From the IMG/VR virus record IMGVR_UViG_2606217117_000010: a stretch of 17,018 nucleotides of DNA; one strand, 5' to 3'. A model generated the notes under the pieces. It did not search any database and was not told where the DNA came from. It worked only from the letters and a program-made list of their open reading frames with translations. This document shows, one piece after another, positions 2,307 to 7,318 of the stretch. This DNA comes from a virus (taxonomy: Duplodnaviria > Heunggongvirae > Uroviricota > Caudoviricetes). Both the position numbers and the translations under genes were made by a program. Every line of letters starts with the position of its first letter. Position 1 is the stretch's first letter.

Positions 2307-2690
2307 ATGCGTGATATTCAGATGGTTCTTGAGCGTTGGGGTGCGTGGGCGGCTAATAATCATGAAGATGTGACCTGGTCGTCCATTGCCGCCGGTTTTA
2401 AGGGATTAATTCCTTCAAAAGTAAAATCTCGCCCGCAATGTTGTGACGATGACGCGATGATCATTTGCGGGTGCATGGCCCGTCTGAAAAAGAACAACAG
2501 CGATTTACACGATTTATTAGTAGATTATTATGTATGTGGTATGACATTCATGTCACTGGCAAGTAAGCATTGCTGCTCGGATGGTTATATCGGGAAAAGG
2601 TTACAGAAGGCTGAGGGCATAATTGAAGGGATGTTAATGGCATTAGATATCCGGTTAGATATGGATATCGTTGCTAATAATTCTAATTGA
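2307..2690 (+). CDS. quuD: late-gene antiterminator Q (phage 82 / DLP12 QuuD type)
   Basis: 127 aa [62 protein letters not shown]... is cysteine-rich (putative Zn site) and matches 82-type Q/QuuD as I recall it. GGAG RBS at 2296-2299. The ORF-track TTG at 2292 is an upstream extension. Confidence 0.85.
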
Positions 2691-2827
2691 TATGCAATTG
2701 TTTACTAAAAGTTATTAAAAATGGGGCGTGGAAACGCCCCCAAAATAAAGGGTAATATATAACAGAAGGTTTATATAGTAAGAAGCAAGGTAGTGCTTCT
2801 AAAGGAAGTGGCTTGAGGGCTCCACTT
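2691..2827 (+). promoter_or_regulatory. possible Q-proximal late promoter / qut region (location uncertain; alternative site at 4160-4205)
   Basis: Inference from lambdoid architecture, where PR' and qut lie directly downstream of Q and upstream of a terminator. An intrinsic terminator lies at 2828-2868, but I could not identify a convincing -35/-10 pair here. Confidence 0.25.
2711..2740 (-). terminator. rho-independent terminator of the porin gene (minus strand)
   Basis: Hairpin GGGGCG-TGGAAA-CGCCCC at 2723-2740. On the minus strand it is followed by ATTTTTAATAAC (reverse complement of 2711-2722). Confidence 0.6.
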
Positions 2828-2878
2828 ATATGTTGCGGAGGCAAAGCCTCCCGCAACATATCTTTTTCGTAAGTCAGA
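2741..2878 (-). ncRNA. ipeX: porin 3'-UTR with strong internal hairpin; candidate IpeX-like regulatory RNA
   Basis: Untranslated stretch between the porin stop (2879) and its terminator, containing the 14-bp-stem hairpin at 2828-2861. An sRNA (IpeX) has been described in the equivalent nmpC 3' region of DLP12 and phage PA-2, as I recall. Sequence identity to IpeX was not verified. Confidence 0.3.
2828..2868 (+). terminator. rho-independent terminator on + strand downstream of Q (tR'-like, or terminator of early rightward transcription)
   Basis: Stem ATATGTTGCGGAGG (2828-2841), loop CAAAG, stem CCTCCCGCAACATAT (2847-2861) with a 1-nt bulge, followed by CTTTTTCG. Confidence 0.6.
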
Positions 2879-3961
2879 TTAGAACTGATAAACCAGACCT
2901 ACAGCGACGATGTCGTCGGTATCAATACCAGCTGTTTTGGTAAACTTACTATCGTCAATTAAGTTGATTTTGTAATCAACAAAAGTAGACATGTTTTTAT
3001 TAAAGTAGTAAGTAGCACCGACATCGACATACTTGACTAAGTCTCGGTCACCATGAACACCAAGGTCTTTACCTTTTGACTGAAGGTAAGCAACAGATGG
3101 GCGCAGACCGAAGTCAAACTGATATTGTGCTACTGCTTCAAAGTTTTGTGCTTTGTTTGCAATATGGTTATTACCAAAAACGGTCATATTCTGAGTTTCA
3201 GAATATGTGGTAGCCAGATAGATATTGTTCGCATCATATTTCAGGCCTGCAGCCCATACTTCCGCATTTTTGCCGGAGGCATTGAATTTGCTCTTACCAT
3301 AGGCGACCTGACCGTCAGTGCGATCTGATTTAGCATAGGTTGCACCCACGCCGAATCCTTCATACTCATAAGTAGTGGAGAAACCGAAACCATCACCATT
3401 GGCTTCAGTTACGTCAGTGCGGTCATTTTTACCCTGATACTGAGCAGCAAAGTTCAGGCCATCGACCAGACCAAAGAAGTCGTTGTTACGATAAGTTGCA
3501 ACACCAGTAGTGCGACCAGTCATGAACACATCTGTTTGGGTCCAGGTATCACCACCGAATTCTGGCAGAACGTCAGTCCACGCACCGATGTCGTATGCTA
3601 CACCGTAGTTACGGCCGTAATCGATGGAGCCGTAATCACCAAATTTCAGGCCTGCAAATGCAAGACGGGTTTTGTCTTTGGAAGAACCTTGAGATTCAGC
3701 ACGGTTGCCTTTGAATTCATATTCCCACTGACCGAAACCAGTCAGTTGATCGTTGATTTGGGTTTCACCTTTGAAGCCAAGACGGGCATAAGTAGTATCA
3801 CCATCATCTGCATCATTAGAGGAGAAGTAGTGCTTGGCATTAACTTTCCCGTATAGATCCAGCTTGTTACTGTCTTTATTATAAATTTCAGCTGCCTGAG
3901 CAGACATCGCCATCAGTACTGATGCAGCTACAGCAGAAATTGCCACTGTTAATTTTTTCAT
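2879..3961 (-). CDS. nmpC: outer membrane porin, OmpC/PhoE general bacterial porin family (prophage NmpC / Lc type)
   Basis: 360 aa from ATG at 3961-3959. Signal peptide [23 protein letters not shown] followed by [16 protein letters not shown], and C-terminal ...VAVGLVYQF ending in Phe: hallmark porin features. Located between Q and the holin as nmpC is in DLP12. The ORF-track start at 4021 is an upstream extension. Confidence 0.9.
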
Positions 3962-4159
3962 TGTACGCCCTTTTTTTGAACTATTATTAAAAAATGATGT
4001 CACTGCGCGATAAATATTCATCTAATCAATGTGATTATTTCAAGATGTAAGTTTTAGTTTCTCATTTAATTTGTGAAGTAGATCTCTATTTTTATCTGAA
4101 CCTTTTCTATCTAATCCTATTCATGGCTCTTGTCTGAACAAAAATAAATCTATTAGCTA

Positions 4160-4205
4160 ATTTATATTAATGGCACTTATTTATAAGTGCTCTATAATTC
4201 TTTAG
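4160..4205 (+). promoter_or_regulatory. candidate sigma70 promoter (possible late promoter PR' driving a short terminated leader RNA)
   Basis: -35-like ATGGCA (4170-4175), 17-bp spacer, perfect -10 TATAAT (4193-4198). It lies about 190 nt upstream of the intrinsic terminator at 4388-4420, analogous to lambda PR'-tR'. The region is AT-rich, so a chance match is possible. Confidence 0.3.
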
Positions 4206-4387
4206 CTTAATTTAAACAAACTAAAAATAACATCGGAAATTATTAACTGATTATTTGTTGAAGTTTTCTTATGTATTTGTGGTGGTGTTTTGAACACTCG
4301 GTGGCATTCTCACAAATATCATTTAGTAGTTTACGTACGTAAAAAATTGGTTATGCTGTTAAGAGTGGTTACTTCGTCACACAGCTT

Positions 4388-4420
4388 AAACCCGCCGTCG
4401 AGCGGGTTTTTCCATTTTTT
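4388..4420 (+). terminator. rho-independent terminator on + strand, 130 bp upstream of the holin gene (tR'-like candidate)
   Basis: Stem AAACCCGC (4388-4395), loop CGTCGA, stem GCGGGTTT (4402-4409), followed by TTCCATTTTTT. Confidence 0.55.
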
Positions 4421-4549: not shown

Positions 4550-4765
4550 ATGAAATCCATGGATAAGTTAACAACGGGTGTCGCCTATGGCACCTCAGCA
4601 GGTAGTGCCGGTTACTGGTTTTTACCGCTGCTCGATAAAGTCACGCCCTCACAGTGGGCAGCAATAGGTGTGCTGGGTAGCCTGGTATTTGGCCTGCTGA
4701 CGTACCTGACAAACCTTTATTTCAAGATTAAAGAAGATAAGCGCAAGGCTGCGAGAGGTGAATAA
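4550..4765 (+). CDS. essD: class II holin / pinholin (phage 21 S21 type) with dual-start motif
   Basis: 71 aa [71 protein letters not shown] has two TMDs and a basic C-terminus. Met1-Lys-Ser-Met4 is the antiholin/holin dual start. Matches S21 as I recall it. Confidence 0.9.
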
Positions 4766-5723: not shown

Positions 5724-5860
5724 AATCTTAACTACAATATGATTCATTTTGATGATTGTTTCATAAGGAACAGTGAAGTAAGATCTAAGAGGAGTTAAAT
5801 TTTATACAGTATAATCATAATATTGCAGCAAGGTGGTTATAATTGAAAGAATATTTAGAT

Positions 5861-7318
5861 ATGAATACATCTCATGTAAGAGTTGTTACTCATATGTGTG
5901 GGTTCCTGGTTTGGCTCTATAGTCTTTCAATGTTGCCACCAATGGTTGTAGCATTGTTTTATAAAGAAAAAAGCCTGTTCGTTTTCTTTATAACTTTCGT
6001 TATATTTTTTTGCATTGGTGGCGGAGCGTGGTATACAACTAAGAAATCTGGCATTCAATTACGTACCCGTGATGGGTTTATTATAATTGTAATGTTTTGG
6101 ATTTTGTTTTCTGTTATTAGTGCATTCCCTTTATGGATTGACTCAGAACTTAATTTAACGTTCATTGATGCTCTGTTTGAAGGGGTTTCTGGAATAACAA
6201 CAACAGGAGCAACTGTAATTGATGATGTTAGTTCATTACCTCGGGCATATTTGTACTATCGGTCACAGTTAAATTTTATAGGTGGTTTAGGAGTTATTGT
6301 TCTGGCGGTTGCTGTATTGCCATTATTGGGTATTGGTGGTGCAAAGCTTTATCAGTCAGAAATGCCGGGGCCATTTAAGGATGACAAACTCACTCCCCGC
6401 CTGGCCGATACGTCACGGACACTGTGGATAACTTATTCTTTATTAGGTATTGCTTGTATTGTCTGTTATAGACTTGCAGGAATGTCTTTGTTTGATGCTA
6501 TTTGTCACGGGATTTCCACAGTTTCGCTTGGTGGTTTCTCAACTCATAGCGAGAGTATCGGATATTTTAATAACTATTTGGTTGAGCTGGTGGCTGGTTC
6601 TTTTTCCCTGCTATCGGCTTTCAACTTCACTCTTTGGTATATTGTTATTAGCAGAAAAACGATAAAACCTTTAATCAGAGATATTGAACTTCGTTTCTTT
6701 CTGTTAATAGCCTTAGGGATGATCATTGTTACCTCTTTCCAGGTCTGGCATATAGGTATGTATGACTTGCATGGAAGTTTTATTCATTCGTTTTTTCTTG
6801 CCAGCTCCATGCTCACTGATAATGGTTTAGCTACGCAGGATTATGCAAACTGGCCCACGCACACGATAGTGTTTTTGCTGTTGTCAAGTTTCTTTGGGGG
6901 ATGTATCGGTTCAACCTGTGGTGGAATTAAGTCACTTCGATTTCTTATACTTTTCAAACAAAGCAAACACGAGATAAATCAACTTTCTCATCCCAGAGCG
7001 TTGTTAAGTGTAAATGTAGGAGGGAAGATAGTTACAGATCGTGTAATGAGGTCTGTATGGAGTTTCTTTTTTCTTTATACTCTCTTCACGGTGTTTTTTA
7101 TACTGGTGTTAAATGGTATGGGATATGATTTTCTTACATCATTTGCAACAGTGGCTGCATGTATTAATAATATGGGATTAGGTTTTGGGGCTACTGCATC
7201 GTCATTCGGAGTGCTTAATGACATTGCAAAATATTTAATGTGCATAGCTATGATTCTTGGTCGCCTTGAAATTTATCCTGTTATTATATTGTTTTCAGGT
7301 TTTTTTTGGCGCTCCTAA
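5861..7318 (+). CDS. trkG: Trk-system potassium uptake protein TrkG (TrkH/KtrB superfamily)
   Basis: 485 aa polytopic membrane protein with repeated selectivity-filter-like glycine motifs (GITTTGATV, GIGGAK, SLGGFS, GSTCGGIK). Matches the Rac-prophage TrkG of E. coli as I recall it. AT-rich gene downstream of Rz/Rz1, as in Rac. The ORF-track TTG at 5843 is an upstream extension. Confidence 0.9.
   Translation: MNTSHVRVVTHMCGFLVWLYSLSMLPPMVVALFYKEKSLFVFFITFVIFFCIGGGAWYTTKKSGIQLRTRDGFIIIVMFWILFSVISAFPLWIDSELNLTFIDALFEGVSGITTTGATVIDDVSSLPRAYLYYRSQLNFIGGLGVIVLAVAVLPLLGIGGAKLYQSEMPGPFKDDKLTPRLADTSRTLWITYSLLGIACIVCYRLAGMSLFDAICHGISTVSLGGFSTHSESIGYFNNYLVELVAGSFSLLSAFNFTLWYIVISRKTIKPLIRDIELRFFLLIALGMIIVTSFQVWHIGMYDLHGSFIHSFFLASSMLTDNGLATQDYANWPTHTIVFLLLSSFFGGCIGSTCGGIKSLRFLILFKQSKHEINQLSHPRALLSVNVGGKIVTDRVMRSVWSFFFLYTLFTVFFILVLNGMGYDFLTSFATVAACINNMGLGFGATASSFGVLNDIAKYLMCIAMILGRLEIYPVIILFSGFFWRS

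Follow-up and report, generated by a model that had tools for sequence, protein, structure and literature searches.

The 17,018-nucleotide stretch of phage DNA analyzed here (IMG/VR virus record IMGVR_UViG_2606217117_000010, Caudoviricetes; referred to in full length as the window) represents the region for late regulation and lysis in a lambdoid Escherichia coli prophage. Between its Q antiterminator gene and its holin gene, on the opposite strand, it carries an intact phage porin gene of the nmpC/lc type, and the 3' untranslated region (UTR) of this gene is, by sequence, the orthologue of ipeX (167 nt, 2715-2881, minus strand, with the porin stop codon at one end and the terminator at the other). 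The porin and its RNA are thus an already known and widespread pair. The best explanation overall, to which we assign a probability of roughly 85%, is an nmpC-ipeX/lc-ipeX cassette with an intact nmpC, the RNA of which would act on host porin messages in an antisense mode. What the analysis adds to the known element is a covariation-supported structure in four classes of homologue and a strong match of the RNA, by complementarity, to the ompC site bound by MicC and to the ompF ribosome-binding site, which is under-appreciated or possibly unreported, and we consider this addition a modest lead.

The identity as ipeX is essentially settled by comparison with E. coli K-12. The gene is listed at 574365-574531 of NC_000913.3, reverse strand, with a length of 167 nt (PMC8313858 supplement 1), an interval that opens with the first base of the nmpC stop codon and closes 2 bases beyond the U-run of the terminator. 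The original prediction had proposed an IpeX-like 3'UTR from the position of the porin, and the alignment bears it out: window 2715-2881 (minus strand), likewise 167 nt, is identical to K-12 ipeX at 158 of 168 positions (94.0%). The differences amount to 8 substitutions and 2 single-nucleotide indels, found mostly in loops and at one stem position, and all of them fall outside the two blocks that pair with ompC (below). The region downstream of the PA-2 lc gene (J02580.1) is identical to the K-12 3'UTR. IpeX has been described as a 167-nt RNA of DLP12 that arises within the porin transcript, from the phage porin promoter, is then processed, and regulates ompC (PMC12197685); repression of both ompC and ompF by IpeX is also on record (PMC5069750; PMC7177473).

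The element nonetheless looks anonymous, because no Rfam match and no ipeX annotation attach to it. A search of the whole window against Rfam 15 gave no match at the gathering score, and the region 2600-3000 returned only chance-level matches (for instance sau-19 and snoRNAs). A K-12-type ipeX would fail the same search, and Rfam therefore appears to hold no IpeX model. The annotation of ipeX is absent from the feature table of NC_000913.3, in which micC and micF are present, and from the records of phages 434 and PA-2; in all RefSeq and phage records inspected, the gene is unannotated. The name svsR was considered as a synonym of ipeX and was rejected, svsR being a prophage RNA that targets lamB and for which no porin gene is mentioned (PMC12803456).

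The closest relatives are the DLP12 prophage of K-12 and phage PA-2. In DLP12 the arrangement is that of the window, with quuD, a porin gene on the opposite strand and essD-rrrD-rzpD, and with a 167-nt ipeX from the porin stop to the terminator; the hairpins, the linker and the terminator of the RNA are all common to the two. The only difference in gene arrangement is an IS5 near the 3' end of nmpC in K-12, which parts nmpC and its promoter from ipeX. As the porin gene of the window is intact and free of IS5, IpeX RNA can come from the porin transcript. The lc locus of PA-2, a live lambdoid phage, resembles the window in its intact porin gene with signal peptide, its upstream CRP sites and its equivalent 3'UTR. 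It differs in carrying another porin allele and a UTR approximately 93-94% identical to that of the window, and the window phage, unlike PA-2, carries a trkG moron and P22-type head genes.

The 3'UTR is highly structured. A 174-nt RNA from this region folds at -54.1 kcal/mol, compared to -31.9 +/- 4.0 kcal/mol for 200 dinucleotide shuffles (z = -5.5), none of which folded as well. All elements lie on the minus strand. Stem-loop 1 (SL1, 2828-2861) has 15 bp with one bulged G and a 3-5 nt loop; over 15 homologues, compensatory changes affect 7 of the 15 pairs, and 97.8% of the cells are paired. The near-perfect 14-bp hairpin predicted at this place is hence real, with its description refined to 11-nt perfect arms within the 15-bp stem. 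Two more hairpins add to those of the original prediction. Stem-loop 2 (SL2, 2806-2827), seen in the fold and in the consensus structure, has a stem of 6-7 bp and a loop with an invariant CCCUCA. Stem-loop 3 (SL3, 2781-2800), a 7-bp stem with a 6-nt loop in the fold, has compensatory changes in 4 of 8 pairs, and the L032/L104 class described below places a different hairpin at the equivalent position. The Rho-independent terminator (2717-2740), found by scan and common to the porin mRNA and IpeX, has 2 compensatory pairs and 98.1% of its cells paired; its stem (2723-2740; 7 bp, 6 of them G-C, loop of 4) is followed by AUUUUU at 2722-2717, so that the U-run is only 5 nt long (AUUUUUAA). The original prediction of a UTR of about 140 nt held, with 138 nt from stop to stem, while its terminator of 2711-2740 contracts to the stem 2723-2740 and a U-run that ends at 2717.

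Homologues were collected by scanning viral contigs for the SL2 motif, with only those matches kept that lie 53-56 nt past a porin stop codon. This procedure gave 35 distinct porin UTRs in four classes: the DLP12/PA-2/window class, the class of phage P7, the L058 class and the L032/L077/L104 class. The porins that precede them are 60-100% identical in protein sequence to that of the window, and the L058 and L032 classes, too, belong to E. coli prophages, where their cassettes adjoin a different type of Q. The P7 class (UTR at L006 2400-2635) had already been found by BLAST prior to the motif scan. Five G+C-rich matches to the SL2 motif (L027, L038, L046, L051 and L054) had no porin stop codon upstream and were discarded as chance. 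When genome contigs from a library of one genome per species were searched with two exact motifs, 3 E. coli records alone were matched and none beyond Escherichia. The invariance of CCCUCA in SL2 is partly built in, because the motif served to collect the homologues; phage P7, found independently of it, has CCCUCA as well.

Consensus folding of a 15-sequence alignment with RNAalifold recovered SL1, SL2, SL3 and the terminator. Compensatory changes were present in 15 of 37 pairs, and 95.5% of the cells were paired, compared to 42-47% in controls in which the pairing partners were slid. The covariation score was 0.367, against 0.065-0.122 for the slid controls, and it was reached by none of 500 column shuffles. 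Of the two controls the slid one carries more weight, since the sequences are related and the SL2 invariance is partly built in. Taken together, these substitution patterns clearly argue for an RNA structure under selection. The conservation of the three stem-loops and the terminator in four divergent classes allows the definition of a family of phage-porin 3'UTR small RNAs (sRNAs) from E. coli prophages and phage P7 that comprises at least four classes and of which IpeX would be the founding member.

The same region holds a 58-aa open reading frame (ORF; 2683-2859, minus strand), and the UTR could accordingly be read as the coding sequence of a small protein. The ORF is in the mechanical ORF list, and the record of phage Chlobot has a 'hypothetical protein' at the equivalent place. 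In K-12 and PA-2, however, the TTC TTA of the window reads TTC TAA and closes the frame after 26 codons, the alleles are separated by single-nucleotide indels, and the ATG is located inside the stem of SL1; the compensatory substitutions within stems indicate selection on the RNA. The frame not being conserved, we rejected this ORF, which is probably an annotation artefact, and give the small-protein reading almost no credence.

Covariation demonstrates a selected structure and not an action in trans, and a role purely in cis has to be weighed at this point. The 3'UTR would then protect the porin mRNA from 3' exonucleases and stop transcription before the convergent Q gene, with no trans role here. 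The stable 3' hairpins and the strong terminator would suit such a function, as would the outcome of a simple scan, in which no sigma-70-like promoter was detected on the minus strand, either in the UTR or shortly before it. Against this stands the literature, which isolates the K-12/PA-2 sequence (94% identical here) as a multicopy inhibitor of OmpC and OmpF (PMC12197685, PMC5069750, PMC7177473). Moreover, 0 of the 8 substitutions and 0 of the 2 indels between the window and K-12 fall in the ompC-pairing blocks, and a cis role leaves unexplained why an unpaired stretch with complementarity to host porin leaders should be conserved. We judge a function in cis alone to be improbable.

This unpaired stretch is the linker between SL3 and the terminator (2743-2771, minus strand; AACCUUCUGUUAUAU-AUUAC-CCUUUAUUU), which we propose as the seed of IpeX. 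The consensus structure leaves it unpaired, and of all blocks outside the motif used for ascertainment it is the most conserved; it is complementary to ompC from -31 to -7 and to the ribosome-binding site of ompF. The comparison was made with the K-12 ompC and ompF leaders, alongside MicC and MicF. Full-length RNAduplex runs of IpeX against the leaders gave meaningless long-range duplexes, and a block search, a seed-restricted duplex calculation, shuffles and a cofold were used in their place. Of 5426 E. coli genomes, 5364 have an ompC leader with at least 99% identity, and this near-invariance makes the K-12 target site representative for any E. coli host strain.

Two perfect Watson-Crick blocks were found against ompC. 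The first, of 10 nt (UCUGUUAUAU, 2757-2766), lies opposite -21 to -12, and the second, of 9 nt (CCUUUAUUU, 2743-2751), opposite -31 to -23; for comparison, MicC has a perfect 16-nt block at -30 to -15. The best duplex of the linker with ompC comprises 15 + 9 = 24 bp from -31 to -7, covers the MicC site and the GAGGG Shine-Dalgarno sequence, and has an energy of -26.4 kcal/mol (MicC, -26.5 kcal/mol). This energy was reached by none of 1500 shuffled linkers against ompC -81 to +40 (z = -4.2) and by none of 400 against -40 to +20 (z = -6.1). In the cofold of full-length IpeX with ompC all four hairpins were kept and pairing occurred via the linker only, with a ddG of -19.9 kcal/mol. Against the Shine-Dalgarno sequence and AUG of ompF (-18 to +9), the linker reached -19.8 kcal/mol. 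The leader of the window porin itself was not a target of the linker (z = -1.5).

The preferred partner varies with the class. The linkers of the DLP12/PA-2/window class pair best with ompC; for the P7 and L032 classes, ompF is the best partner (z = -4.0 and -4.2, respectively; 0 of 400 shuffles). These variants of the seed suggest that the predicted preference shifts between ompC and ompF from class to class. The P7 and L104 classes carry UUAUUUAUUACC(GU), a segment of 12-14 nt that is identical to the MicF seed at nt 17-28 (17-30 in L104). In SL2, the CCCUCA of the loop (2812-2821, minus strand) is complementary to UGAGGG, a 6-nt block that constitutes -15 to -10 of the Shine-Dalgarno region of ompF and is also present in the ompC leader. 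The SL2 loop may provide a further anti-Shine-Dalgarno contact or take part in a kissing interaction.

A published target prediction for ipeX bears on the ompC pairing. It assigns to ipeX a 'functional region' at nt 128-142, and the target list in its supplement holds only those interactions that cover at least approximately 80% of the functional region (PMC8313858). The second pairing block (nt 130-138) overlaps the listed region, and the ompC duplex covers 9 of its 15 nt, so that this filter would have removed the ompC pairing. Ranks 1 and 3 of the ipeX prediction are missing from that list (supplement 4).

Several points weigh against an antisense mode of action. The pairing was spotted by eye and was checked against only the two known targets. 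For the window allele the ompF pairing is weakly significant, its energy being reached by 72 of 1500 shuffles, and by 7 of 400 against -40 to +20. The minimum-energy fold of the single sequence places part of the seed in a weak A-U hairpin (2756-2777), which is absent from the consensus structure and which, if formed, could modulate the accessibility of the seed. The 2006 paper on IpeX by Castillo-Keller, Vuong and Misra reportedly found no complementarity to the required region of ompC and proposed a mechanism other than pairing. A review holds that the mechanism of IpeX does not rely on complementarity alone (PMC12197685). The effect of IpeX on ompC is said not to depend on Hfq, and the RNA is credited with a single annotated direct target (PMC8313858); an Hfq requirement is reported for some targets (PMC5069750).

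These reports lend weight to the view that IpeX acts without base pairing, either by titrating a protein needed for the stability or translation of the ompC and ompF mRNAs or via its hairpins, in which case the complementarity would be incidental. Three conserved hairpins, one with an invariant loop, could indeed bind a protein. This account has nevertheless to contend with a 24-bp duplex of -26.4 kcal/mol that coincides precisely with the MicC site plus the Shine-Dalgarno sequence, an energy reached by 0 of 1900 shuffles, and with a pairing segment that is the most conserved unpaired block across the four classes. The divergent classes, furthermore, retain complementarity to ompF or ompC and resemble the seeds of MicF or MicC. 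A match split into 10 and 9 nt would easily be missed by a word-based search. On balance we regard a mechanism without pairing as unlikely, though deserving of serious attention.

The mechanism that we prefer is an ordinary antisense occlusion of the ribosome-binding sites of ompC and ompF, in which the role of pairing as the cause of repression is deduced from the complementarity. In this scheme the porin gene would be transcribed leftward from its own regulatory region with a CRP site, and the transcript would end at 2717-2740. Its last 167 nt would be processed out as IpeX, in keeping with the literature on this RNA, and we infer that a processed, stable IpeX is present in the lysogen of the window phage. 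The three hairpins and the terminator would scaffold and stabilize the RNA, and the linker would pair with the ompC mRNA from -31 to -7, across the MicC site and the Shine-Dalgarno sequence, and with the ribosome-binding site and start codon of ompF, blocking translation initiation in both cases. Host OmpC and OmpF would be lowered, and the lysogen would trade the host porins for the phage porin, the leader of which is not complementary to the linker and would thus escape repression. OmpC is the receptor of PA-2. On that account the porin swap would exclude superinfecting phages while a general porin is kept in the outer membrane. That the pairing is functional and, in addition, has not been described before is a joint claim that we advance tentatively, as somewhat short of an even chance.

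The proposed mode of action invites comparison with MicC (on ompC) and MicF (on ompF), the predicted target sites of which are common with those of the IpeX linker; for MicC the duplex energy is equal as well. All three RNAs are encoded beside a porin gene. MicC and MicF are independent genes divergent from ompN and ompC, respectively; both carry the seed at the 5' end, and MicC associates with Hfq. IpeX, in contrast, forms the 3'UTR of a porin mRNA and has its seed immediately before the terminator, interrupted by a 5-nt internal loop; it has no overall sequence homology to either. Another comparison is with 3'UTR-derived sRNAs such as SdhX, CpxQ and MicL, with which it shares the use of the parent terminator, the lack of a recognizable promoter of its own, a conserved seed near the terminator, and processing. 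The members of that class are typically Hfq-dependent and have a long U tail, whereas the element of the window has a U-run of 5 nt, is borne by a phage and targets paralogues of its parent gene.

The cassette is common. Region 2600-4300 of the window is matched in 3172 of 5426 complete E. coli genomes, with 100% identity in E. coli NCTC86, and the element is matched in 39 phage records, including that of PA-2. With ipeX unannotated and with apparently no Rfam model, automated pipelines miss a host-porin silencer that matches more than half of the complete E. coli genomes. Should the antisense model be true, a testable conventional mechanism would replace the supposed 'novel mechanism' of IpeX, an RNA that citations over 20 years have credited with an unusual mode of porin regulation other than simple pairing, and it would explain how lysogens exchange a porin that serves as phage receptor for the phage's own porin. 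The linkers would then be phage-borne mimics of the MicC and MicF seeds, with relevance to phage resistance and antibiotic permeability, since both depend on the levels of OmpC and OmpF.

The porin gene itself (2879-3961, minus strand; ATG at 3961, TAA at 2881-2879) encodes 360 aa in the ORF list. Residues 29-360 align with positions 1-337 of the 337-position Porin_1 profile (PF00267; E = 1.9e-151), the C-terminus ends in VYQF with its C-terminal phenylalanine, and the nucleotide identity to the IS5-interrupted nmpC of K-12 is 88%. The translation begins with a 23-aa signal peptide (3893-3961, minus strand) with cleavage before AEIYNKD, the counterpart of the 69-nt sig_peptide in the PA-2 lc record J02580.1. 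The original prediction of a porin with signal peptide that lies on the opposite strand between Q and the holin, as nmpC does in DLP12, is confirmed by the ORF, the Porin_1 match and the quuD-porin-essD order. The cassette has some traits of a moron, namely its own terminator, a strand opposite to that of Q and the lysis genes, and a conserved homologue of a CRP site. This putative CRP/CAP site (4069-4089; ATAGAGATCTACTTCACAAAT) corresponds to a misc_binding feature of PA-2 (L005 1434-1454) and is identical in the window, PA-2 and K-12; the upstream region that includes it has a mean conservation of approximately 96% across the three. A simple scan of 3962-4300 for a minus-strand sigma-70 consensus promoter found none.

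Within this upstream region, the A+T-rich segment 3921-4290 shows approximately 82% identity to unannotated places in other E. coli genomes that have no porin match (H25-H29), and it may be a late-promoter or regulatory segment shared with porin-less prophages. A promoter-like site, ATGGCA-17-TATAAT, is present on the plus strand at 4170-4198. A strong plus-strand terminator (AAACCCGCCGTCGAGCGGGTTT and a T-run, 4388-4409), conserved in PA-2 and K-12, follows about 190 nt past this site and 140 nt before the holin gene. Together they resemble a pR' promoter and a tR' terminator that frame a 6S-like leader RNA. With the porin-ipeX cassette placed between Q and pR', late transcription would not cross the porin gene antisense. 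In the RefSeq (PGAP) annotation of many genomes the prophage porin goes under 'ompC: porin OmpC'; others have plain 'porin'. The 'ompC' label on a phage porin could confuse ompC typing or counts of porin loss.

The surrounding genes fit the late region of such a prophage. In the prophages that match the whole window, the order is ninB, a methyltransferase gene, ninE, rusA and ylcG (the nin region), quuD, the porin, essD-rrrD-rzpD/rzoD, trkG, terminase, portal and a P22-type capsid. The Q antiterminator gene quuD (2307-2690, plus strand; Pfam Phage_antitermQ, E = 6.7e-54), named after RefSeq records that are 100% identical here, runs toward the porin terminator from the other side. The lysis cassette opens with the P21-type holin gene essD (4550-4765, plus strand; Pfam Phage_holin_2_1, E = 2.1e-34; RefSeq name essD). 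A trkG-like potassium transporter gene (5843-7318, plus strand; Pfam TrkH, E = 1.6e-143), called trkG by RefSeq in the matching prophages, lies between the Rz/Rz1 lysis genes, which it follows directly, and the terminase genes, and is the second moron of the prophage; the trkG of K-12 is located in the Rac prophage.

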